A DNA stretch of 28,721 bases from a virus. Lineage: Duplodnaviria; Caudoviricetes. The stretch covers positions 1 through 28,721 of the IMG/VR virus record IMGVR_UViG_3300014656_000100; one strand, 5' to 3'. The first letter of the stretch is position 1; every line of letters begins with the position of its first letter. The notes beneath the pieces were generated by a model. The model ran no database searches. It saw only the letters and a list, made by a program, of their open reading frames with translations, and was not told the DNA's origin. The position numbers and the translations under genes are program-made. Shown here piece after piece: positions 2,788-23,478 of the stretch.

Positions 2788-3207
2788 TTAGCTTGCTTTA
2801 ACAAAGGGTTTATCCCATCTCCCAATTTCTAAATGTAACCAGTAATTAACATCAAAATAATCTGCCTGAGGGTCTGAGTTATTCCAGTTGTCACGGCTAG
2901 CTATTTTATAAGCGTTTGCCATACACTCCCAAGCTTCTTTAGTGAGATATGCTCCATTGTTTACGTTCTCATCATTTGGCCTTTGAAATCGATATTGATT
3001 GAGCTGTGCATATCCCCTGATAGGATTCCCATTGCAATCCTTATCCTTAGCAAATGCCTCAAAAGGTGCTGTCATTAGAGTAACGTTTAATGCTTGTCCC
3101 CCAGAGAATCGCTCAATTCTAGTTGACCATTGGCAATCAGGATATTGCCTTGTTAATTCTTGTTTAACCTCTTTCGCTATTAGTTTTATATCCTTGTATT
3201 CTCTCAT
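2788..3207 (-). CDS. LPD29-like protein (large polyvalent protein-associated domain)
   Basis: AKEVKQEL...YPDCQWS.R..RFSGGQAL.V N-terminus and NSDPQADYFDVNYW C-terminal motif; AGGAG RBS. Confidence 0.7.
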   Translation of the reverse strand: MREYKDIKLIAKEVKQELTRQYPDCQWSTRIERFSGGQALNVTLMTAPFEAFAKDKDCNGNPIRGYAQLNQYRFQRPNDENVNNGAYLTKEAWECMANAYKIASRDNWNNSDPQADYFDVNYWLHLEIGRWDKPFVKAS

Positions 3208-3319
3208 TCCCTTTTCTCCTATCCCTCAGCCTGGCTTACTAGCTCAGGTCTTATGAGTTTACCTGCTAATCCCTTGCGTTTGCCGAGGCTTGCTATTCCC
3301 CGGCAAGTAGCTAGGGCGT

Positions 3320-8190: not shown

Positions 8191-8378
8191 ATAGTAACAA
8201 TATTGAGATGTATTTTTCTGATACGACTGATTTAGATGCGGTGAGGTGTACTGAATGTGGAAGTATTGACTTTGATTACACAGAAACAAGGAAGTTTTGT
8301 GTACGCTGTGGTTTGGTTGCTAAGAAATCACTGTATAGTACAGCAGGTACAGAGGTAGAGTATGACAACTGGAACTAA
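8187..8378 (+). CDS. small zinc-ribbon protein (TFIIB-type ribbon pattern)
   Basis: CTECGS...FCVRCGLV; ATGA-coupled to the upstream gene and overlaps the terL start. Confidence 0.6.
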   Translation: MNSNNIEMYFSDTTDLDAVRCTECGSIDFDYTETRKFCVRCGLVAKKSLYSTAGTEVEYDNWN

Positions 8379-10647
8379 AGTAAAGCCTTTCAGGGAAATA
8401 ACTCCTGATGGGAAGCTGACACTAAATATGCACCCTGGACAGTCAAGGGTATGGAAGTCTCGCAAAAGATATATTGATATGCAGGCTGGTTCACAGGGTG
8501 GCAAGACGTGTTTCGGGCCTCACTGGTTGGATAGAGAAATAAGAACCTGCGGGCCTGGCGATTATCTGATAGGCACGGCTACCTTTCCTTTACTTGATAG
8601 GAAGTTACTTCCAGAGTTTCTGTATGTATTTGAATATCTATTACGCTATGGGACTTATAACGATAACAAGAAGGTCTTTACTTTCTTTAATGAGAAAACA
8701 GTCAAGAATAAGAGCGATTATATTCTGTTCCCCAACGCAGATGTAGATACCAAGATATTTATTGGCTCTGCTCAGAATCCAGAATCTATGGAATCCGCTA
8801 CTGTTAAGGCTATATGGCTAGACGAGTGTGGAATGAAAATGTTCAAGAGAGAAACATGGGAAGCTGTTGAACGGCGTGGTCTGATAAACAAAGCAAGGAT
8901 TCTTTTTACAACTACACTTTATTGCTTAGGTTGGTTCAAGACAGAAATATATGACCGCTGGGTTAATGGCGACCCTGATATAGATGTTATCCAGTTTGAC
9001 TCTATTGAGAATCCTGCCTTTCCTCTTGATGAATACCAGAGGATGCAAAAGAGTATGCCTGGCTGGAAGTTTAATATGATGCACAGGGGGCGATTTGACA
9101 AACCTACTGGGCTTATCTATGATGCCTTTGACTCGGCAAACGATGTGGTTGAGCCGTTTGAAATACCCTCTAGTTGGCCGAGATATGTAGGACACGACTT
9201 CGGGCCAGTTAATACTGTTGCCTTATGGAAGGCTTATGACCCTATGTCGAGTACAATTTATACTTATCGAGAATATTCAATGGGTCAGTTATCTACATTT
9301 GAACACGTTACGAATTGGATTGAATTATCAAAAAATGAAAGGATAGCAACACGAATGGGTGGTTCACTCACTGAGGATGGTTGGAGGGGTGATTTTACTC
9401 AGGCTGGATGGAGAATTGATAAGCCTTTAGATGGGAATGTATGGTCTGGGATAAACAGGGTTTATGGCTTTGAAAAGCTCCATAAGCACAAGGTATTCAG
9501 GACTTGCAAGAATTATTTAGCTGAGAAGCAAACATTTAGTAGAGAACTTGATGCCAACTATAATCCCATTGAGGATAAAATAGAGGACGCACAAATATAT
9601 CACCTTATGGCTTGTCTGGTGGGTGAGACATTGGTAACTACGGAAGATGGCTTGAAACCGATTAGAGATGTCAGAGTCGGCGATAAAGTCTTAACTAGGC
9701 AGGGATATTACCCTGTTAGAGATAAAATTGAGAAAGTGGCTGATACCATTGAAGCTAAGTTCTCCAATGGTCAAATCTTACAGGGGACTCCAGAACATAA
9801 TGTTTTTGTAAAAGAAAAAGGTTTTCTTCCATTGACAGCCCTGCGATATTATGATACAGTAGAGACATGGAACGAGAAACAGTTATTTACAGGGGCGTCA
9901 AATATCATCGGTATCCGCAAGCAAAGAGGCGGTCTGATAGGATCTACTTCAGGTCTAGCAGGGGTTATCTCCACAGGATTATCTGGCAGGATAACTTTGG
10001 CGCAATACCTAGGGGGTGTTGTATCCACCATAGGGACAATAATTCTGCGAATAATGAACTCTCTAATCTTGAATGTAAAGGACTTGGATTACACATATCA
10101 GAACATCTTGAAAATGGTGCGAGAATATATGACCTTGAACACCTTGCCCGAATACGTCCACTCGCAATTGAGCGATGGAAGCAATGGGCTTCTACTCCAG
10201 AGGGCAAAGCCCACCTTAGTCAGAGAGCAAAGCAAGAATGGGCAGATAAACAACCAATTACCAAGATGTGCCAATTCTGCGGGAAAGAATACCAAACCCT
10301 TGAACCCTCCCACAGTAAGTTCTGTTCACCAGCTTGCAAAACAGCCAACCGGTATGCTTCCCATAAAGATGATGAACAGCGTCAATGCGGAATCTGTGGC
10401 AAATCTTTTCTCATTAACAGATACGCACTTACCAGAACTTGCTCAAGAAAATGCGGTGCGATTTATAAACACAACATGCAAAGACAAAACAACTGTCTAT
10501 GACCTCAATATAGATACAGTCCACGAATACTACGCTAACGGTATCCTCGTTCATAATTCTGAGCGGTATATGATGACTCAGTTCAGACCGTTATCGGTAT
10601 TATCAGATGATGCCGATATAGCACTAGTAGGCACAATTAAGGGATAG
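8362..10647 (+). CDS. terL: terminase large subunit, intein-containing (761-aa precursor, ~446 aa after splicing)
   Basis: Q-motif HPGQ, Walker A AGSQGGKT, Walker B IWLDE, coupling motif TTT, RNase H-like GHDFG; the spliced C-terminus YHLMA|SERY corresponds to the DH..DA.RY motif; directly upstream of the portal. Confidence 0.92.
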   Translation: MTTGTKVKPFREITPDGKLTLNMHPGQSRVWKSRKRYIDMQAGSQGGKTCFGPHWLDREIRTCGPGDYLIGTATFPLLDRKLLPEFLYVFEYLLRYGTYNDNKKVFTFFNEKTVKNKSDYILFPNADVDTKIFIGSAQNPESMESATVKAIWLDECGMKMFKRETWEAVERRGLINKARILFTTTLYCLGWFKTEIYDRWVNGDPDIDVIQFDSIENPAFPLDEYQRMQKSMPGWKFNMMHRGRFDKPTGLIYDAFDSANDVVEPFEIPSSWPRYVGHDFGPVNTVALWKAYDPMSSTIYTYREYSMGQLSTFEHVTNWIELSKNERIATRMGGSLTEDGWRGDFTQAGWRIDKPLDGNVWSGINRVYGFEKLHKHKVFRTCKNYLAEKQTFSRELDANYNPIEDKIEDAQIYHLMACLVGETLVTTEDGLKPIRDVRVGDKVLTRQGYYPVRDKIEKVADTIEAKFSNGQILQGTPEHNVFVKEKGFLPLTALRYYDTVETWNEKQLFTGASNIIGIRKQRGGLIGSTSGLAGVISTGLSGRITLAQYLGGVVSTIGTIILRIMNSLILNVKDLDYTYQNILKMVREYMTLNTLPEYVHSQLSDGSNGLLLQRAKPTLVREQSKNGQINNQLPRCANSAGKNTKPLNPPTVSSVHQLAKQPTGMLPIKMMNSVNAESVANLFSLTDTHLPELAQENAVRFINTTCKDKTTVYDLNIDTVHEYYANGILVHNSERYMMTQFRPLSVLSDDADIALVGTIKG
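9613..10557 (+). mobile_element. intein (315 aa, residues 418-732 of TerL)
   Basis: Block A CLVGETLVTTEDG, block B GTPEHNVF, block F TVYDLNIDTVHEYYANG, block G ILVHN followed by Ser+1. Confidence 0.93.
9867..10502 (+). CDS. HNH homing endonuclease with C-terminal zinc-finger repeats, nested in an alternative frame within the intein
   Basis: YLHRIIW...G.IP.G..IHHRDNNSANNELSNLEC.....H...H HNH motif; CQFCGKEY...FCSPACK and CGICGKSF...TCSRKC fingers; offset from the terL frame is 1505 nt (not a multiple of 3). Confidence 0.88.
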   Translation: MERETVIYRGVKYHRYPQAKRRSDRIYFRSSRGYLHRIIWQDNFGAIPRGCCIHHRDNNSANNELSNLECKGLGLHISEHLENGARIYDLEHLARIRPLAIERWKQWASTPEGKAHLSQRAKQEWADKQPITKMCQFCGKEYQTLEPSHSKFCSPACKTANRYASHKDDEQRQCGICGKSFLINRYALTRTCSRKCGAIYKHNMQRQNNCL

Positions 10648-10656
10648 GAGAGTTTA

Positions 10657-12444
10657 ATGACAAAAATAGCTGACCTTAGAGGTAGTAAAGCCGTTCCGCA
10701 GTCAAATTCAATAGCTGCTCAAGCACCGGGTTCTGCCATTACAGATGATGAAATAATGAGTTGGATAAACTCAGTGGATATGGAATGGCGGAAACACATT
10801 TTTCAGCGTATGGATGAGGATGAAAAACTGTGGACGCTAGACCCTTATACTCTCAAAGACCCAGATGGTGAGACATTAGAGCGTGTAGTAAACGTTAATA
10901 TGAATGATGCCAGGGTTTTTGGAGAGCGTGTTTTAGCTGTTCTAAATGAATCTCAAGAGATTATTGAAATAAATGGGCAGCGTGATGGTAAGCCATTAGA
11001 CGGACACCAATCGGCAGTTATTGAAGATTGGTGGAGAGACCTGATGTATTTGGCAAATGAAAACCTTAACAGCATCTTGATGCCTGACTTTGATGTCTAT
11101 GAATGGGAACAAAATGCAATCAGAGGTGGGCAGATAGCGAGAATCCTTTTGTCTCAGGATAGAGATGGTTTTGATATTGACCTTTTACCAGTGGATAGAC
11201 GTAAATGCGTTTATTCTGTTGGTAGATGGGGGTTATCCAGGGTAGCCTTCTGGGATATTCTTGATAAAGATATGTGTAGAGAGGAATATCCCGATTATAA
11301 ACCGCTTGGAGAAGCAACAATAAGGTGGGATTTTTGGGATAGCAGGGAAGAAGTAGTCTTTTTAGATGGTAAATTTTATGAAGCTACATCGAATAAATTA
11401 GGATATCCTCCTTTTGTTATTCAATTATGCCAGCAAGGCACATTTCTTGATACTACAAATAGAGCATTAAGGATGCACGGTGAGTCTATATACTCTGCTA
11501 ATAGAGAACTTTATCCTGAGTTAAACAGGATAGCCTCAATCCTTCAAACAATGAATCAATTGGCTCTATCTCCCCCGCAAGTTCTGGGGAGTAAAAGTGG
11601 CAAAAAGTTACCAGATAAACCTATTTATAGGGCTGGCAATGTCTTGGCATTAGAAACTGAGGACTGGTTAAAAAGAATAGAGAGTCCAGATATACAGGGG
11701 TCACTCAGATTCTTTACGGCATCATTAGGGGGGGCAATACAGCGAGGTTCAATTTCTCATATAGACTGGGGTAATTTACAGTTTCAGTTATCTCAGGTAG
11801 CTATTGCCACACTAGCTGGAGCATCGAGACAGGTATTCACGCCAAGATTAAAGACTATGGATAGATTTAAGAGGATGCTATTTAAGGAAGCTAGATGGCA
11901 GTTTGAAACTTTTAATATGACAGCCGATATTGGCAGGGTTGGCAGAAAGAGAATTTATACTCCTGCTGACCTTGCTGGCAATTATACTGTAGACTTTGAG
12001 TATCTAACTGCTCTACCAGAAGAAACGGCTGCTACTTATGGGTTGGCACAGATGGCAGAGAGGTGGATGGATGACAGGAGTATTAGAAAGACAATCCTTA
12101 AATATCGGGATTACGATGACATTGACGAGAAATTCCTTGTTCAGACAGCTAAGAAGGTTAGCAGAGCATTAGCTTTATTTGAGATGGCTCAGGCTTTGGA
12201 TAAGCAGGGTAATCCAGACGAGGCTAGAATATTACTCATTGAAGTAGGTCAGACGCTTGAAGGAACTGCTCAGGGAGAAGTGAGTAAATTAACAGGTGTA
12301 GAGATACCGCAGGCTTCACCTCAACAGGAAGCACAGGCTTTACAGGTAGGTCAAGGTGGTCCAGTTGAAGGTGCGGTTAGAACAACCAGGAAATCAGAAC
12401 CGCCTGGTGCAGGAGAATTTATGGAAGAGGAGGTTGCGGTCTGA
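10657..12444 (+). CDS. portal protein (head-tail connector)
   Basis: 595 aa directly after terL; AGGAG RBS; portal-like segments (NKLGYPPFV, GESIY...RELY..LN...S) and a low-complexity C-terminus. Assigned from position and partial motifs. Confidence 0.75.
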   Translation: MTKIADLRGSKAVPQSNSIAAQAPGSAITDDEIMSWINSVDMEWRKHIFQRMDEDEKLWTLDPYTLKDPDGETLERVVNVNMNDARVFGERVLAVLNESQEIIEINGQRDGKPLDGHQSAVIEDWWRDLMYLANENLNSILMPDFDVYEWEQNAIRGGQIARILLSQDRDGFDIDLLPVDRRKCVYSVGRWGLSRVAFWDILDKDMCREEYPDYKPLGEATIRWDFWDSREEVVFLDGKFYEATSNKLGYPPFVIQLCQQGTFLDTTNRALRMHGESIYSANRELYPELNRIASILQTMNQLALSPPQVLGSKSGKKLPDKPIYRAGNVLALETEDWLKRIESPDIQGSLRFFTASLGGAIQRGSISHIDWGNLQFQLSQVAIATLAGASRQVFTPRLKTMDRFKRMLFKEARWQFETFNMTADIGRVGRKRIYTPADLAGNYTVDFEYLTALPEETAATYGLAQMAERWMDDRSIRKTILKYRDYDDIDEKFLVQTAKKVSRALALFEMAQALDKQGNPDEARILLIEVGQTLEGTAQGEVSKLTGVEIPQASPQQEAQALQVGQGGPVEGAVRTTRKSEPPGAGEFMEEEVAV

Positions 12445-12969: not shown

Positions 12970-13121
12970 TGCCGTTTGTGAGTTCAGAGTTAAAGAAGTT
13001 ATCTAAAGATATTATTAACAGAGCACTTCAAAAACAAACATTTCAGCCGAGGTCTAATCTTTTAGTAGAAAGGTTGAGGCAGACTTTAAGAACTCAAAAA
13101 CCAAGAGCACCGAGGTTTTAA
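12969..13121 (+). CDS. small basic protein (50 aa)
   Basis: ATG 12969 has a GGAGG RBS and TAATG coupling on both sides; the track start at 12936 is probably too long. Confidence 0.6.
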   Translation: MPFVSSELKKLSKDIINRALQKQTFQPRSNLLVERLRQTLRTQKPRAPRF

Positions 13122-16100
13122 TGGTAGAGACTGTAATAAGAGATTTAACTGGTCAGATTATTGGGAACAGGAGAATTGTTACTAAATCACCTGTTAGTGG
13201 ACGTTATCTTATAAGAGAGACTGACACCGATGAAGTGTATTGGATGGAGCCAGAGGAATTAGAGAAACCTAAAGCCCCTCCAGTAGTAGAACCAGAAGCC
13301 CCCTTTAGATTACCACCAACTGTTCCAGAAGCCAGAGCACTTGAATTCCAAACAATGCCTGCTGGTGGTGGTAGTCGTGGGGTTGAAGGTGGCGAGATAT
13401 ATTATTCTCCCACAGGTGAATCATATTTTGTGCCTACAGGAACACCTTTCAGAACTGGTATTCCCATAACCAGTGAAGCTGACATATCAGGGATAAGAGA
13501 AAGACTGGCAACTATTCCAAGGCGACCTTCTGGAGTGCCAAAAGCTCCAGAGTTTAACCTTCCTGATATTCTAAGGAATGTCTATCCAGAGATGGGTGAA
13601 TCACCAGAAGAAGTTTTTAATGCTGCTCTGACTCTGGCGAGAGACGATCCTGAAGCCTTTGTTGAAGATTTAAGGGCGAAGGGTAGAAACGAATATACGG
13701 AATCTCTGCTGAAGGCTTTAGGGGCTGATGACCAGATGATAGACGATTTATATTCACAACAGGTTTCCATCCCGCAGCAGGCTGTTGTTGAAATTGAAGG
13801 CGTTAGAAAACTGATAATTTATGATACAGCAACTAACAGAGCCTACGATTCAACGGGTAAATGGATTGGTTCATATAATCCTAATAAAAAAGAGTTTACC
13901 CTAAAAGAACAACACAAATTGATAAGTCGTGGCTTGTATGAAAGATTGGGTTATGCCCCTGCTCCTCCAGTAAAGAGTTCTGAGGAAAGAAAAGAAAGGG
14001 TTAAGGCATTTCAATCGTATCGTAAGGCAGGGGGCAAGATGTTTTATGATAAGTGGGAAGCAATGGGTATGCCGGTTAGCCCAGAGGTAGAACCTCCCCC
14101 TATTTCAGATGAAGAGCGTCAGCGAATTATTGATGAGGAAGTTCGCAAGCATATGAATTTGCTCAAAGTATTGGGGGAAGGTTTAACTAAGGTACTACCC
14201 CAGGTAGCAGCTGCTTTTCTTAGTGGTATTCAAGGAGGACAAGGGGCAGTAGATATAGGCTGGGCTGATAGATTTATTGAGGATGCCAAGAAAGATTTAG
14301 ACCAGTTTGCTCAAGAGACATTTGATAAATATGGGGAAACAGGCTTGCCGTTTACAGTTTCAGATATAGCTTATTTACCCCAGAATATAGCTTATTCATT
14401 AATTACAATGGGAGCATTTGCAACTACAGCTGTCCCGATAGGAATGGTTCCATTGCCAGGGGCTAGAGTAGCTGCTTGGTTTCTTGGTTCAGCAGTTTCG
14501 GGAGTGGTGGCTTACCAAATAACTACTTACCAGATAACTAAGGAATACCTTGACCTTAAAGACGAAGAGAATATGAAGGAAACTGGCAGGCACTTAACTC
14601 TGGCTGAGAGACAACAATTATATGATGACTTTGAATCTAAGGCTAGGGCTTATGGGTTATGGGAAGCTTTGCCTGAAGCAATAAGTAATCTTGCTTTTGC
14701 TAGAATATTAACTCTACCGCTAGGTAGAGTAGTGGGCAGAAGTATAGCAACTAAGATTTTAAGTAAATTCGTTGGTATATATGGTGAGGAGTTCTTGACG
14801 GAAACAATAACCCAAAAGGGTCAATCGGCAATAGAAGTTCAGGCAGGACTTAGGGAAGGTAACATAACTTGGGTAGAAGCCTTCAAGGAAGTAGCCCCGC
14901 AGACCTTCCTTCTAACGACAGTGATGGGAGGTCTTGGGCAGAGTGGTATTTCTACTATTAACCGAATTAAGAAGTCCTTAAAAACTGAGATTACAGAAAC
15001 TCATCCTCTTTATAATGAGATTGTCAGCGAATTAGATAAAAGTCAAGGATTACTAGACAGGATAGTTGAGGGAGCGAAAGGGGTAAGAGAACGAGTAAGG
15101 GAAGCACCTGAGCGTGGTGCGATAGAAGGAGTACCTAAAAAACCTTGGCAGATGATAAATAATGAATATATGACAAATAAGGTACGGCAATCTAACCCTG
15201 CTGCTAGTGAATCTGAAATAAGAAGGATAGTAAATACCATTCCCGATAGATTGAGGGAAACTGAACACAAACAACTTGTGCAGGATGCTCTCTCTGAAGG
15301 TAAACCTGTCCCTGCTGAAGTATTAGCAGAATATCCTGATTTAGTTAAAGGAGTACCAGAGGGTAGACCAGAGGTTACAAGAGAGATTAAGATTATTGGT
15401 GAAGATAAAACACTATTAGATAATATCAGACCTGAAATATCCGATTTCTTGAAGGGTATGTCTGATTCAACTGTTTATATTGTGCCTCGTGGAATGAAAG
15501 GATATGGATATGTAGGCAGGGGTATGGAGGATAGACCCTATGATTTATACATAGGCGAAAAGAAGGGGAAGCAAGAATTAAATGAAACTATCCTTCACGA
15601 AGCGATACATCAAATTGAAAGCGGAAGATGGAATACCCCATTAGCCAAACAGATGAGAGAAGAATGGAGAAGTCTGAACTTTGAGGACAAAACTCCGCAG
15701 GAATTAAAAGAATTAGGATTTTTTGACACACTATTTATGTTCAGGAAGTCTACTGCAGATGCAAGGAAGAGGGGTGAATTTCTATCGGAGATGGCGGAGG
15801 AATATATTGTCAGACCCCAAGAATTGGAGAAATCCGCTAAACCCTTGTATGACTTTTTCAATAAATATATTAAAGCCGTTCCTGAAGTTACAATAGAGAA
15901 TATAGCATATCACGGAACATCATCAGTTCATTTAGAGCAAATAAAAAGAGAGGGATTAAAGCCTTGGCGATTAACAAAACAACAATTACCGAAAACTTTA
16001 ACGGAAGTAGGTGATTATGTCTATCTATCGTTGAATCCTGAAACTGCGAAATCTTTTGCATCTGAAATGACAAACCGTTTGAAGATGTCATCTGAATATC

Positions 16101-19100
16101 GTGGTGCTACTGCGGAAGTAGTGCCAATAGATATTTCTACATTGAGGTTGAAGAATGTGGAGAATATCCGCAATTCGCTTCAAGCTAGAGAAGCAATGGA
16201 CTTGGCTCTTAAAGAAGGATATGATGGCATTTCATTTGGTGGGACGAAGGAATTTCCTACGCAGGAGGTTGTAGTAGCAAATTATGAAAAACTAAAAATT
16301 GGTAAACCAGCAATCCCCAAAGAGGTTATACCCCCTGTTACTGAAGCAGTTGAAGCACCTCCAGTAAAACCTGCTGTTGAGATTCCTGGGGTTACTCCTA
16401 TGACTGAGGTTACTCCCACTGGCGAAACAATATCAAGCTCATATATTGAAGCCCCAACTCCAACTGAAGGGGCTACTGCTAGAGTGTTCAGTAGAATACA
16501 AATTGAACCTGCAGAGTCTAATATCAGGGAGAAAATAAGGCGTGGCTGGCACAAGTTCAATTCTAAAATGGTTGATGATTTATTCCCATTAAAGAGGATA
16601 ACCGACCAATTGCGGAAAGGCGGGGTTGATTTATCTATTCAGGAGAATCCTTATCTTTTGGCTAGACTTCTCAGGGGTGTTACCAGCAAAGCTACCACAT
16701 TCCTTGAGTATGGCACATTTGGTAAGCAATTCTGGAAGATGGAGAAGGGCAAAGCAGTTCCCAATTATACAGGGGAGTCACTTGAGAATATTCTCAATGA
16801 AGTAAGAGCCCCTGTTAAATGGCGGGATTTCTCTACTTATCTAACAGCTAGAAGGGCTTTTGAATTAGCTCAACGTGATATAGAAACAGGTATTACACAA
16901 GATGATGCCCTATCAAGTGTTGGCGAGTTAAACGCTAAGTATCCAGAGTTTGATGCGTTGGCTAAAAGAGTCTATAAGTATCAGGATAGCCTTCTGGTCT
17001 ACGCTAATGAGATGGGGCTTATCAGTGGAGACCTTTTAGGAAAACTACGCCAATATGGGAACTATGTTCCATTCTATCGAGTGTTCAATGAACTTGAATC
17101 CAAAGGTGTATTCGGCAAAAAGATGGCTAATATAGCCTCTCCTATCAAGAGAATAAAAGGCTCTGAAAGGGAGATAATCAACCCCTTAGAAAGTATAGTC
17201 AAGAATACTTATGTCTTAATCAGTGCTGCCGACAGGAATCAGGTGGGTATTGCTCTGGCTAATCTAGTTGACCAGAATCCTGAGCTGGCAGATGTATTTG
17301 AGAGAGTAAAAACACCAATGGCAAGAGTAGCTCAGGTTTCAGCCAAAGAGCTTGGTGTTGATATAGAGGGTTTATCAGAAGCTGAAGAAGAGCAGATGGT
17401 TGATATATTCAGACCCTCTTTCTTTGTTAGTGGTGATGAGGTTACTGTTTTAATTGATGGCAAGAAAAATTATTATAGGATTGATGCTGACCTCCGTGAT
17501 GCTTTATTGGCTCTTAACAGAGAATCATTGGGTATGATAGGGAAGATACTTGGTGCTCCTGCCAGATGGTTAAGAGCTGGCGCTACATTAAGTCCTGATT
17601 TTATGTTCCGAAATCCTGCCAGAGACCAAATGACTGCCTTTGCCTATTCCAATTATGGATTTATGCCTGGGATAGATTTTATCAGAGGTATTGCCAGTAT
17701 GATAGGTAAGGGTAATGATTACCAGTTATTCAGGATGTCTGGAGCAGAACATTCTATGTTGGTCTCAATGGACAGGAGTTATTTACGAAAGAGTTTTAAG
17801 GAAATAGTTGAGGGTAGGGATTTCACGGAGTATGTGAAACATCCCTTAGAATTATTCAGAATTATAAGTGAACTTGGTGAAAAGGCAACAAGATTGGGTG
17901 AGTTTAAGAAGGGTATTCAAAGCGGAGCAGTGCCTCTTGAAGCTGGTTATTCAGCAAGGTCTGTAACTCTTGATTTCTCTCAGGCTGGCACGACTGCTCA
18001 GGCTATCAATACCCTTATCGCCTTCTTCAATGCCACTATTCGTGGTTGGGGCAAGATGATTAGTTCATTCAAAGAACATCCCATTAGAACCTCAGCCAAA
18101 GTTTTCGCAGGTATCACACTCCCAAGTTTATTATTATGGGCAGTTAATCACGATGATGAAAGGTGGAGGGAAATACCCCAATGGCAGAAGGATTTATTCT
18201 GGATTGTCTTTGTTGGCGATACCATCTATCGTATCCCCAAGCCATTTGAGCTTGGTATTATCTTCGGCTCAGTCCCCGAAAGATTCCTTGACTGGTTGGT
18301 GGATAAAGACCCAGAACTGATGAAGGATGTTGCCCAAACGCTAATAGAATCGGGTAGTCCTGGTTTTATTCCAACAGCAGGATTACCGATTTTAGAATGG
18401 ATGACCAATTACTCATTCTTTAGAGGAAGCAAGATAGTTCCTGCAAGTCGAGAAGCAATGCCTGCCGAACTCCAATATACTGCCTGGACTAGTGAAGTCT
18501 CCAAAAAACTTGGTGAGCTTCTTAAACTACCTCCAGCAAAAATAGATAATCTTATTTTTGCTTGGACAGGTGGGTTGGGAAGATATGCTACGGATATTAT
18601 GGACGGTATTCTCAAAGGAACTGGTGTCAGCCCTGATATTCCAGAGCCATCTGCCACACTGGCGGATACTCCCGTAATCAAAGCCTTTGTAGTTCGTAAT
18701 CCTTATGGTTCTGCTGGTGAGACAGTTAATGATTTTTATGACATCCTTGAGAAGTATGAGTCTGGTGAGAAGTATCTCAAGGAAATGTTACTCCAAGATA
18801 ACATAGAAAAATTCAATGAGTTCAAAGCATCGCATCCCGAACTCTTATTCTTTGCCGATTTTGACATTAAAGAGTATCAAGAAGCGATTGAAAAGGGGGA
18901 GACACCCAAAGAAGTATTCTATTCCGCATCAGCCAGATACTTACGCAGGGTAGCCAGAGACTTAACTGAAATCCGCAAGAAGCAGGATTTAATCTATCAG
19001 GATGAGAAGATGAGTCCTGAAGAAAAACGTAGGCTGATTGACGAGATGGATTTTCTAAAGACTGATGTAGCCCGCAAGGCTCTGGATTTACTTCTGGGAG

Positions 19101-20791
19101 CAGACCCTCAAGTATTACAGAATGAACTTAATACTGCCATAGGTCAACTGGGTGAGGTCATTGACGAAGCCCCTGTTTTATCTGTTGAGGAATCTGATAT
19201 TTATGATATGCCGAAATTGAACCAGAAATTCAATACATTGCTTGAAGGCGTAACCTCCGAGGAATTAAAAACTATGGAGGGAGTTCATCCCCTAGCCTTT
19301 GCTTATCTTGAAAAGGAAGATATAGAGACTACTATGGAGCCTATGCTCAATAAGCAACTAAGGAATTTTGAGGTTGATTTGAAGGAAGGCTATACCTTTG
19401 CCGATTATTACAAGCAGTGGCAGTTGGGATTGGTGAAGGATTCTCCATTGGAAAATCTATCACCAGAACAAAGAGTTTTGCTCCGCAAATACCACGCTGC
19501 TGATGACGAGACCAAGAAGAAGCTACTTGAAAAACACCCTGAGTTAAGGGAGAATCCAAGACAGGAATGGATAAAGTCACATCCAAAAGAAAACGCTATG
19601 CTTGCTCTATGGAAAGGCACTGAAATATATTCTAAAGAGGCTTATCAAGAATATAAGAAGCTGCTCAGTAAATTTAATGTGCCTGAAGATGCAATCCCAG
19701 AATTGACTTTACCCCCTGAGACATCTATCAATATTCACTTCCAATGGCTGGATTATGTAGCGGATAAAAAACAAGGAACTTGGGAAGCAGATTTACTTCT
19801 ACTTAAAGATGCCGAGGCAGCCAAGATAGCAGGAGTCCAGTCATATACGGAGTGGAGAAAAGAGCAAGGCAATCCACTAACACTATCAGATATTCCAATT
19901 GATATACTGGAGGAGAAGATAAAGTTCAGACCGAATGACGAGGTTTATAATGCCATACCAGATGAGATAAATCCTGAAACTGGTATAAACCGAAGAACTG
20001 AATACTTGGATAAACCTGAGAATAAGGCTTATAAGCTATTCCGCCGGCAGTCTGAGTTCTACTCTCTGGATATTGATGATGTCTATAATCAGACTGAACT
20101 CCGTGATGAGTATGTATATTACTATAATGACCTATCTGCATCTGGTTATAGGCGAGACCGCCTATTGTATGACACTAGAGGTAATCTTACTCCATTTGGT
20201 GAGTTAATGCGAGATGTTAAGGGTATTACGATAACGCCATTCAACGAAATTCCTGATGTTAGATATGATGAGTTGCTTGAAATTGAGGATAGAACTCAGG
20301 CGGAAGAATGGGAAATGAATGCCTATAAACTCTTCATCGGGAAGGAACAGTATGTTGATATTTATATGGGTTATAAGGATATTAAAGAAAAGGGCAAACC
20401 TGCTGGTCAGACTTACTGGTTTGATGATGACTGGTATCTTATGGATAACCCTGAGTTCTATAAAGAAATGGTCAGGATAAAGGCAATGACACCTAAAGAC
20501 TTCAGTAAAGTCCCTCCGAGGGATGTATTCAAGTTATATTTGATGTATGACAGTATTATTGCTACTCCCGGGATTACTAAGGCTGAAGGTCGGAGGGATG
20601 TGCGGAGACGCTATCCAAAGTTAGATGCCTGGTTATTCTTGATAGGTGCTGTCAATGAAACAATAGAGGAGTATGATGTAAGTGCTGGCTTGACTCCAAC
20701 TGAAAGGCAAGCTAGAAATATTGCAGAGAAAGAAGGACTGATAGCTGACCTTCAGGAAGAAACAAGGCGAAGATTAAAGGCGATGCAGTGA
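13121..20791 (+). CDS. giant polyvalent protein (2556 aa), probable internal virion/ejection protein with peptidase-like, ART-like and LPD38-like domains
   Basis: HEAIH zincin motif (15596-15610); AYHGTS...VYLS...GYDGI...EVVV ART-like module (~15905-16290); LPD38-like region (RNPARD, PQWQKDLFW, RIPKPFELG) at ~17560-18800; lies within the head gene block. Confidence 0.75.
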   Translation: MVETVIRDLTGQIIGNRRIVTKSPVSGRYLIRETDTDEVYWMEPEELEKPKAPPVVEPEAPFRLPPTVPEARALEFQTMPAGGGSRGVEGGEIYYSPTGESYFVPTGTPFRTGIPITSEADISGIRERLATIPRRPSGVPKAPEFNLPDILRNVYPEMGESPEEVFNAALTLARDDPEAFVEDLRAKGRNEYTESLLKALGADDQMIDDLYSQQVSIPQQAVVEIEGVRKLIIYDTATNRAYDSTGKWIGSYNPNKKEFTLKEQHKLISRGLYERLGYAPAPPVKSSEERKERVKAFQSYRKAGGKMFYDKWEAMGMPVSPEVEPPPISDEERQRIIDEEVRKHMNLLKVLGEGLTKVLPQVAAAFLSGIQGGQGAVDIGWADRFIEDAKKDLDQFAQETFDKYGETGLPFTVSDIAYLPQNIAYSLITMGAFATTAVPIGMVPLPGARVAAWFLGSAVSGVVAYQITTYQITKEYLDLKDEENMKETGRHLTLAERQQLYDDFESKARAYGLWEALPEAISNLAFARILTLPLGRVVGRSIATKILSKFVGIYGEEFLTETITQKGQSAIEVQAGLREGNITWVEAFKEVAPQTFLLTTVMGGLGQSGISTINRIKKSLKTEITETHPLYNEIVSELDKSQGLLDRIVEGAKGVRERVREAPERGAIEGVPKKPWQMINNEYMTNKVRQSNPAASESEIRRIVNTIPDRLRETEHKQLVQDALSEGKPVPAEVLAEYPDLVKGVPEGRPEVTREIKIIGEDKTLLDNIRPEISDFLKGMSDSTVYIVPRGMKGYGYVGRGMEDRPYDLYIGEKKGKQELNETILHEAIHQIESGRWNTPLAKQMREEWRSLNFEDKTPQELKELGFFDTLFMFRKSTADARKRGEFLSEMAEEYIVRPQELEKSAKPLYDFFNKYIKAVPEVTIENIAYHGTSSVHLEQIKREGLKPWRLTKQQLPKTLTEVGDYVYLSLNPETAKSFASEMTNRLKMSSEYRGATAEVVPIDISTLRLKNVENIRNSLQAREAMDLALKEGYDGISFGGTKEFPTQEVVVANYEKLKIGKPAIPKEVIPPVTEAVEAPPVKPAVEIPGVTPMTEVTPTGETISSSYIEAPTPTEGATARVFSRIQIEPAESNIREKIRRGWHKFNSKMVDDLFPLKRITDQLRKGGVDLSIQENPYLLARLLRGVTSKATTFLEYGTFGKQFWKMEKGKAVPNYTGESLENILNEVRAPVKWRDFSTYLTARRAFELAQRDIETGITQDDALSSVGELNAKYPEFDALAKRVYKYQDSLLVYANEMGLISGDLLGKLRQYGNYVPFYRVFNELESKGVFGKKMANIASPIKRIKGSEREIINPLESIVKNTYVLISAADRNQVGIALANLVDQNPELADVFERVKTPMARVAQVSAKELGVDIEGLSEAEEEQMVDIFRPSFFVSGDEVTVLIDGKKNYYRIDADLRDALLALNRESLGMIGKILGAPARWLRAGATLSPDFMFRNPARDQMTAFAYSNYGFMPGIDFIRGIASMIGKGNDYQLFRMSGAEHSMLVSMDRSYLRKSFKEIVEGRDFTEYVKHPLELFRIISELGEKATRLGEFKKGIQSGAVPLEAGYSARSVTLDFSQAGTTAQAINTLIAFFNATIRGWGKMISSFKEHPIRTSAKVFAGITLPSLLLWAVNHDDERWREIPQWQKDLFWIVFVGDTIYRIPKPFELGIIFGSVPERFLDWLVDKDPELMKDVAQTLIESGSPGFIPTAGLPILEWMTNYSFFRGSKIVPASREAMPAELQYTAWTSEVSKKLGELLKLPPAKIDNLIFAWTGGLGRYATDIMDGILKGTGVSPDIPEPSATLADTPVIKAFVVRNPYGSAGETVNDFYDILEKYESGEKYLKEMLLQDNIEKFNEFKASHPELLFFADFDIKEYQEAIEKGETPKEVFYSASARYLRRVARDLTEIRKKQDLIYQDEKMSPEEKRRLIDEMDFLKTDVARKALDLLLGADPQVLQNELNTAIGQLGEVIDEAPVLSVEESDIYDMPKLNQKFNTLLEGVTSEELKTMEGVHPLAFAYLEKEDIETTMEPMLNKQLRNFEVDLKEGYTFADYYKQWQLGLVKDSPLENLSPEQRVLLRKYHAADDETKKKLLEKHPELRENPRQEWIKSHPKENAMLALWKGTEIYSKEAYQEYKKLLSKFNVPEDAIPELTLPPETSINIHFQWLDYVADKKQGTWEADLLLLKDAEAAKIAGVQSYTEWRKEQGNPLTLSDIPIDILEEKIKFRPNDEVYNAIPDEINPETGINRRTEYLDKPENKAYKLFRRQSEFYSLDIDDVYNQTELRDEYVYYYNDLSASGYRRDRLLYDTRGNLTPFGELMRDVKGITITPFNEIPDVRYDELLEIEDRTQAEEWEMNAYKLFIGKEQYVDIYMGYKDIKEKGKPAGQTYWFDDDWYLMDNPEFYKEMVRIKAMTPKDFSKVPPRDVFKLYLMYDSIIATPGITKAEGRRDVRRRYPKLDAWLFLIGAVNETIEEYDVSAGLTPTERQARNIAEKEGLIADLQEETRRRLKAMQ

Positions 20792-21893: not shown

Positions 21894-23478
<1,585 letters not shown>

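Follow-up and report, generated by a model that had tools for sequence, protein, structure and literature searches.

The large terminase gene (terL) of a linear virus record of 28,721 bases contains a predicted intein whose DNA also carries, in another reading frame, a separate gene for a predicted HNH endonuclease. The record (Duplodnaviria; Caudoviricetes; IMG/VR IMGVR_UViG_3300014656_000100) is ∼75% complete, is present in groundwater metagenome runs, and is called here, at its full length, the window. The arrangement is real, under selection and widespread in dozens of phages. Our reading, to which we assign a probability of roughly 80%, is that the out-of-frame HNH endonuclease is made from a promoter inside the intein and serves homing of the element into empty terL alleles. 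The features concerned are the following.

8362..10647, + strand: terL precursor open reading frame (ORF), 761 aa; its N-extein matches terminase large subunit PHROGs 2, 5653 and 10250
9613..10557, + strand: predicted intein with class-1 signature, 315 aa (C1, TxxH, block F Asp, HN, +1 Ser)
9613..9867, + strand: N-terminal splicing region, residues 1–85, with block B T59-P-E-H62 at 9787–9798; pLDDT (predicted score of the local distance difference test) 84–98
9832..9860, + strand: predicted sigma-70 promoter (–35 TTGACA at 9832–9837, 17-nt spacer, TG at 9852–9853, –10 TACAGT at 9855–9860)
9867..10502, + strand: HNH endonuclease ORF, 211 aa, ATG start, frame +2 relative to terL
9868..10473, + strand: filler peptide in the intein frame, about residues 86–287; low pLDDT, low identity, dN/dS above 1
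9966..10106, + strand: HNH_3 nuclease core (H36, W40, H54-H55, D57, N63, N67, H76, H80; PF13392 over residues 34–70)
10269..10454, + strand: two predicted Cys4 zinc fingers (C135/C138/C153/C157 and C174/C177/C192/C196)
10474..10557, + strand: C-terminal splicing region, with block F V-Y-D-L at 10495–10506
10558..10647, + strand: C-extein, 29 aa, first residue Ser; aligns with the C-terminus of intein-free alleles

The intein and the gene overprinted on it

An earlier note on this DNA described a complete intein in TerL with Cys1, TPEH, VYDL and HN/Ser, and each motif is found where that note had put it: C1, T59-P-E-H62, V295-Y-D-L (with D297), and H314-N315 followed by the +1 Ser. Seven terL relatives were compared across the insertion site, leaving out one locus that ends before it and one distant partial match. 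All seven are uninterrupted there, and the window's insert lies exactly after Ala417, in the C-terminal nuclease motif of TerL (H-L-M-A/S-E-R-Y). The intein boundaries are fixed by these intein-free alleles, which divides the precursor into an N-extein of 417 aa, the 315-aa intein and a C-extein of 29 aa, with a predicted spliced product of 446 aa. Residues T59, H62 and N315 are invariant across 68 family inteins (one per cluster of homologous loci, see below). Pfam Intein_splicing matches the window intein with an E value of 9e-7 at a score under the curated cut-off, as is also the case for the intein models. An AlphaFold2 (AF2) model shows a confident Hint fold, with block pLDDT of 84–98 over residues 1–90 and 97 over residues 291–315, and a low-confidence middle part (43–71); its top Foldseek matches are inteins (best E value 2e-6). 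The signature residues, the Hint fold and the absence of the insertion from homologs identify a class 1 intein, of which splicing is a prediction. Splicing at the RNA level was considered and rejected, as no Rfam family matched in the window.

The Asp of the H-x-x-D-A-x-R-Y terminase nuclease motif, a metal ligand in the SPP1 terminase, is replaced by Ala both in the window (9601–9612 and 10558–10569) and in some intein-free relatives, and Glu stands two residues on (other loci concerned: L091, L094, L002, L005, L084).

A canonical full intein carries its endonuclease in frame between the splicing regions; here the nuclease lies in frame +2. The absence of an in-frame endonuclease, proposed for the window, extends to the family, in that a Pfam scan of the 68 inteins (E ≤ 0.01) found no nuclease family in the intein frame. 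The +2 ORF, in turn, is an intact HNH gene with zinc fingers, as the same note had claimed: it matches Pfam HNH_3 (PF13392) above cut-off (E value 1e-10) and PHROG 15471, an HNH profile (2e-32). HNH_3 is its sole Pfam match, and no endonuclease VII appears among the PDB matches listed. Core HNH residues are 94–100% conserved over the 68 clusters, with H54, H55, N63, N67 and H76 invariant, and the zinc-finger cysteines are 99–100% conserved in filled alignment columns. The fingers give weak matches to FCS-type fingers and are likely DNA-binding. The AF2 model of the HNH protein has a mean pLDDT of 90.7. By profile and by fold, its closest solved relative is the homing endonuclease I-HmuI, which is intron-encoded; both likenesses are weak (E values of 0.02 and, with Foldseek, 0.018).

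The HNH gene is separate, as had been proposed: it starts at its own ATG (9867), its frame is closed upstream by an in-frame TGA (9852–9854), and it ends inside block F with a TGA (10500–10502) that is read from the intein codons TAT GAC. Both frames are indeed stop-free over the overlap, offset by +2 nt, and the third frame is stop-rich. To gauge how far this exceeds chance, we redrew codons under three schemes. With the HNH protein fixed and phage codon usage, 8.0 stops are expected in the intein frame, and none of 20,000 draws was stop-free. With the gene's own codons shuffled, the expectation falls to 2.7 stops (P = 0.013). If instead the filler is kept constant, the HNH frame should contain 17.4 stops, and again 0/20,000 draws were stop-free. 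The dual-open frames thus exceed chance, and openness of the intein frame is only modestly unlikely under the gene's own codons.

Selection by frame and spread of the nested layout

Homologs of the HNH gene were collected in three locus searches, which yielded 89 loci from viral contigs, the main search keeping the best 80 of 518. These searches ran on small alignments, an alignment of 16 sequences being too diverse. In 81 of the 89 (one being the window's own record; 68 clusters at 90% HNH identity) the HNH gene lies in frame +2 inside an open-frame intein, and in none of the 89 does the intein end in the HNH's own frame. At one locus, L080, the HNH frame is cut short by a premature stop. The conserved dual-open arrangement anticipated for homologs is thus present, with 0/89 loci carrying the HNH in frame. 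Among longer proteins, a weak search for an in-frame fused form gave one unrelated zinc-finger/HNH protein only. Of 1,285 representatives with E ≤ 1e-30, the 150 best are almost all 186–395 aa long; two are long zinc-finger repeat proteins.

The host genes are terminases: of 80 N-exteins scanned, 66 match only phrog_2, and all named PHROG matches are terminases. Nesting also occurs in 6 of 13 loci from prokaryotic genome contigs and in cultured phages, for which we looked at seven regions out of 21 records. Four of these (Highwayman, TJE1, phiCDHM19 and LS06-2018-MD07) have the nested gene, and in all four terL alone is annotated, which bears out the expectation that protein-based annotation misses the HNH. 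We found no literature on an intein in TJE1 or phiCDHM19. In phages BP10 and CL2, the HNH gene is free beside terminase genes. Eight of the 89 viral-contig loci are not nested, and seven of these lie directly behind an intein-free terL.

Selection in the overlap was predicted to act on the HNH frame only, and the comparison by frame shows this. In the four closest relatives the HNH frame is 54–64% identical and the filler, on the same bases, 32–38%; across all relatives compared, the ranges are 46–64% and 27–38%. Differences concentrate at the third codon position of the HNH frame (e.g. 66/42/118), and conservation reaches 90% or more in 34 columns of the HNH frame versus 2 of the intein frame. 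Eighteen pairs were used for dN/dS, the ratio of nonsynonymous to synonymous rates; three are saturated and two near-identical, leaving 13 computable in the HNH frame. Twelve of these give 0.08–0.27 and one gives 0.47. In the intein frame, 15 of the 16 pairs that are informative have dN/dS above 1, a side effect of the overlap rather than positive selection. Purifying selection follows the HNH frame, and the filler is unconstrained apart from staying open.

The 68 family inteins occupy four adjacent registers in the H-x-x-D-A-x-R-Y motif, represented by 29, 19, 6 and 5 clusters (9 unassigned), with the window in the third; the four registers fall within five codons of this one motif. The intein of L029 has Ser in place of Cys at the first residue, and several family inteins have Ser, Lys, Leu or Gly for the penultimate His. 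In Brochothrix phage BL3 (L105, NC_015254, 714–2594), the terL intein is broken by stops and annotated as gp2 and gp3. BL3 gp3 starts with the filler and ends in the C-terminal splicing region and C-extein, and the HNH remnant, in frame +2, consists of the zinc-finger end only. This looks like a split intein derived from the same terL-intein/HNH element. At L051:2-2440, a terL upstream of a free-standing family HNH has an N-terminal stretch matching phrog_26446, a profile also matched by the window's intein, and this terL may carry a different intein.

A predicted promoter in intein codons

Just ahead of the HNH gene lies a predicted sigma-70 promoter that matches the consensus at 10 of 12 positions and has an extended TG. 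It is spelled in the intein codons L-T-A-L-R-Y-Y-D-T-V, its TG also belongs to the TGA that closes the HNH frame upstream, and its –10 box ends 6 nt ahead of the HNH ATG. No Shine-Dalgarno match precedes this ATG. A start 7 nt past the –10 box is the usual sigma-70 geometry, which predicts a leaderless HNH mRNA.

To ask whether the promoter is conserved beyond what the protein dictates, we anchored 63 clusters on intein Asp81 and made 2,000 synonymous re-draws with intein codon usage. A first null, dominated by extein codon usage, also flagged the control site on one measure, and hence we dropped it and relied on this stricter one. The core TAnnnT follows Asp81 in 43/63 clusters, compared to 30.8 expected (maximum 41 in 2,000 draws). 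The extended TG is present in 36 (21.3 expected), and full matches, scored as 9/12 or better, number 23 (12.4 expected, maximum 20). The control, Asp24 of an earlier Gly-Asp motif, shows no excess, with 14 cores versus 13.0 and 0 full matches versus 0.7.

A start codon is at the expected place in 64 of 68 clusters (ATG in 56), and Tyr-Asp/Asn codons of block F supply the HNH stop in 28 of 68. The start falls exactly 6 nt after the box in 27 of 57 cases, where only multiples of three are possible, and 26 of the 27 have the core; none of these 27 starts has a Shine-Dalgarno sequence. More generally, Shine-Dalgarno sequences accompany 2/33 short-leader versus 13/24 long-leader cases (Fisher p = 1e-4). 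The spacing of box, 6 nt and ATG also recurs in four of seven free-standing HNH genes. These patterns make it likely that the HNH endonuclease is made from its own internal promoter.

Contigs of the RNA-labelled run X5 cover 9380–9764 and 10311–10464. We did not use these as evidence of expression, since contigs reveal neither start, strand nor level and could derive from DNA.

Probable homing, competing explanations and known systems

Under our favored reading, terL would be translated as the 761-aa precursor, from which the intein with its ∼200-aa filler would be excised to restore the 446-aa TerL. A transcript beginning at or beside the A of ATG 9867 (TTGACA-17 nt-TACAGT-6 nt-ATG) would yield a leaderless mRNA, so that the coding DNA would not have to contain a ribosome-binding site; where relatives have a longer leader, a Shine-Dalgarno sequence is more often present instead. 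By its likeness to I-HmuI, the HNH protein is probably a nickase, whose target may be read by the helix and zinc fingers. During co-infection it would cut intein-free terL near the nuclease motif, and repair would copy the element. The TerL frame would stay open only because TerL is essential.

The distribution of the element is consistent with this. Intein-free terL alleles are 75–82% identical to the window extein, and the closest HNHs (60–64%) sit in exteins just 31–36% identical in short local matches; in L006 the extein is 68% and the HNH 54% identical. In the extein tree, the window TerL groups with intein-free L091 and L095, and the approximately unbiased (AU) test rejects a clade of the window and intein-bearing L006 (p = 0.013). 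The patchy distribution and tree conflict fit homing.

A number of observations weigh against the reading. Intein loss could also yield patchy presence, and we found no near-identical intein in a divergent extein, the sign of recent homing. Of the five closest intein-free alleles, four have Ala at +1 (the fifth, L094, has Ser), and in those four an intein at this register could not splice. Splicing, the transcript, the HNH protein and cleavage are predictions from sequence, and the likeness to I-HmuI is weak, as noted above. The dS values of the window's own pairs are near saturation, and keeping the best 80 of 518 loci favors intact HNHs. The +1 frame of the HNH family contains few stops by nature: 2–9 in five free-standing homologs, and none over the HNH in two further free-standing loci, L047 and L069. 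Keeping this frame open thus costs little, which goes some way toward explaining the origin of the overlap. As for the promoter, a plain scan of the region gives no excess (2 found versus 2.6 expected), so the evidence rests on position and conservation. Taken by itself, the window would show such a promoter with a probability of ∼0.012 given its amino acids; part of the –10 box follows from an Asp-x-hydrophobic protein motif; shared ancestry of the 63 sequences accounts for part of the signal; and the core box is absent in 20 of the 63.

Among other explanations, the one that fares best is that the HNH protein is a packaging cofactor of the terminase, of the HK97 gp74 type, kept for its benefit to the phage rather than for homing. 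We give it a small chance. The seven loci behind an intein-free terL, the two cultured phages with the HNH beside terminase genes and the strong, long-term purifying selection would all suit such a role, but a homing gene aimed at terL would be expected beside it just as much. Moreover, the flanks of eight close terL relatives contain no HNH homolog, and neither do five of five close intein-free records (fragments, 15–83% complete). Proteins of the gp74 type are shorter and are members of PF01844, whereas the HNH here is an HNH_3 protein of ∼210 aa with C-terminal zinc fingers. The cofactor idea was also raised for a Brucella phage case (PMC4422536).

Slightly less probable is that the element is a relic, an HNH that once homed and is now silent or inactive within a vertically inherited intein. 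The missing recent-transfer pair would agree with this, and decay does occur in the family, as in the premature HNH stop of L080 and the BL3 remnant. In the window, however, all conserved HNH and zinc residues are intact and the promoter departs little from consensus; for close pairs among other family members, dN/dS is about 0.1. We likewise consider it improbable, by a shade more, that the HNH is reached by –1 ribosomal frameshifting from terL, producing a fusion of N-extein, intein N-terminal region and HNH. In its favor, a –1 shift leads into frame +2, no Shine-Dalgarno match precedes the ATG of the window, and a start codon is missing from the expected place in 4 of 68 clusters; against this, a stop 13 nt before the ATG closes the HNH frame, with no X XXY YYZ heptamer there in the window, slippery heptamers occur in 9/68 clusters, near background (20 of 272 45-nt windows), and the ATG and promoter spacing are conserved.

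That two compensating sequencing or assembly indels displaced an in-frame HNH has a negligible probability and was rejected: the window is a metagenome assembly compared with contigs only, but contigs of independent runs (X3 and X4, of a study not flagged as the source of the window) jointly tile 9515–10670 without substitution or gap, so that the compensating indels named by the earlier note as a refutation do not show in contigs, as distinct from raw reads, and the same layout recurs in the 68 clusters and four cultured phage genomes. Low-depth contigs of variant intein alleles (∼85–93% identical) cover 9607–9887 and 10440–10585 in runs X2, X3 and X4. Run X6 covers 158 nt only. A joint in run X2 that skips 9530–10555 has just 30 nt on one side and was not counted as an empty allele.

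The general layout is already described in print, so the suspicion that it was novel does not hold. Brucella phages Tb and Pr have a nested out-of-frame HNH in a terL intein (GenBank JN939331, ORF7/ORF8; PMC4422536, 2015). Phage Tb resembles the window in its large terminase, its intein, its separate same-strand HNH with zinc motifs and its two open frames. The Tb nuclease, however, is in frame +1, with a C-terminal PF01844 HNH behind the zinc motifs, whereas in the window it is in frame +2, with HNH_3 first and the fingers last. The Tb gene starts at a GTG with a Shine-Dalgarno-like sequence, the window gene at an ATG with no such match. The Tb intein lies in the ATPase half of the terminase rather than in the nuclease motif, and the two HNHs share 14/50 identities. 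The window thus does not belong to the Tb type.

Inteins whose nuclease, of an endonuclease VII-like kind, lies 'in reading frame 3' have been described from actinobacteriophages (Gosselin, Arsenault and Gogarten, bioRxiv 10.1101/2025.01.02.630785). As far as the accessible text goes, they share with the window the strand, the offset, the unstructured filler and a terminase among the hosts, and the report also advances invasion of a mini-intein by a free gene and warns of missed annotation. In that text it is an endonuclease VII-like enzyme that lies out of frame, the HNH cases keep to the intein frame and no promoter is proposed; the window, with its HNH_3 nuclease, is not of this type. A cyanobacterial dnaX intein with a +2 LAGLIDADG ORF, for which Gorbalenya 1998 is credited (Phillips, DeSimone and Gogarten, bioRxiv 10.64898/2026.09.14.751524), shows the same frame-dependent dN/dS pattern, and secondary invasion of a mini-intein is proposed; unlike the window, it has a LAGLIDADG enzyme, a cellular host gene and a Shine-Dalgarno-led start. 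The ShiLan insertion, an out-of-frame HNH in a phage methylase (PMC11855218), likewise hides the gene in another frame with the host frame open, and leaderless initiation is guessed there; according to the accessible sections, it has no splicing domain, its host gene is non-essential and no promoter is identified. With I-HmuI (PDB 1u3e, phage SPO1), the window HNH shares, at weak scores, an N-terminal HNH core followed by a long helix; no zinc fingers were matched.

The features common to out-of-frame-nuclease inteins in the 2015, 2025 and 2026 reports, namely a separate overlapping ORF, an open host frame and purifying selection in the nuclease frame, are all found here. We found no paper that treats a promoter embedded in an intein or this HNH_3/zinc-finger family at the nuclease motif of TerL, in a search that most subscription papers and preprint supplements lay outside; the HNH family, the TerL nuclease-motif site and the promoter were thus not found described.

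How intein and nuclease came together is less clear. In an HNH tree built by a quick method, 34 of 74 inner branches are unresolved and free-standing genes are scattered among nested ones; nine changes are needed for nine free rows, equal to shuffled labels, and the starred branches force only two. Given this mixture in a tree of weak support, escape from inteins and a single invasion account for the data equally well. A comparison for remnants of an intein next to free-standing HNHs gave no significant match. At L069, a free-standing HNH lies between two diverged copies of the last ∼26 terL codons (2355–2432 and about 3195–3272), and the +1 frame is open through the HNH into the second copy; this is possibly an intermediate of insertion into terL without an intein. 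A broader proposal, which we hold tentatively and at somewhat worse than even odds, is that an unnamed terL-targeting HNH_3/zinc-finger family alternates between a free state behind terL and an overprinted state in an intein. The intein codons would then contain an expression cassette (the promoter at the end of the N-terminal splicing region, a leaderless start and a block F stop), and the intein would slide among the four registers where Cys or Ser is available.

Elsewhere in the window, a free-standing LAGLIDADG_3-like ORF of 176 aa (22025–22555) lies just upstream of a capsid-like gene (22666–23478), with no Rfam intron match. The window also encodes a 2,556-aa protein with an LPD38 domain (13121–20791) and a small LPD29 protein (2788–3207), both domains being of the polyvalent-protein kind.

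The surprise of this element is limited, given that its general architecture was already described. Its significance lies partly in annotation: standard annotation says 'terminase' and misses a whole nuclease gene, as in all four nested cultured phages, and such inteins would therefore be scored as nuclease-less or decayed. The embedded promoter offers a testable answer to a question that section 4.3 of PMC11855218 leaves open, namely by what route hidden HNH genes come to be translated. The free-standing, nested and split (BL3) forms offer naturally occurring steps on which the gain and loss of homing enzymes by inteins can be tested. If the alternating-family proposal is true, it would give a testable answer to how hidden nucleases are expressed, and it would show intein and nuclease joining and separating repeatedly.

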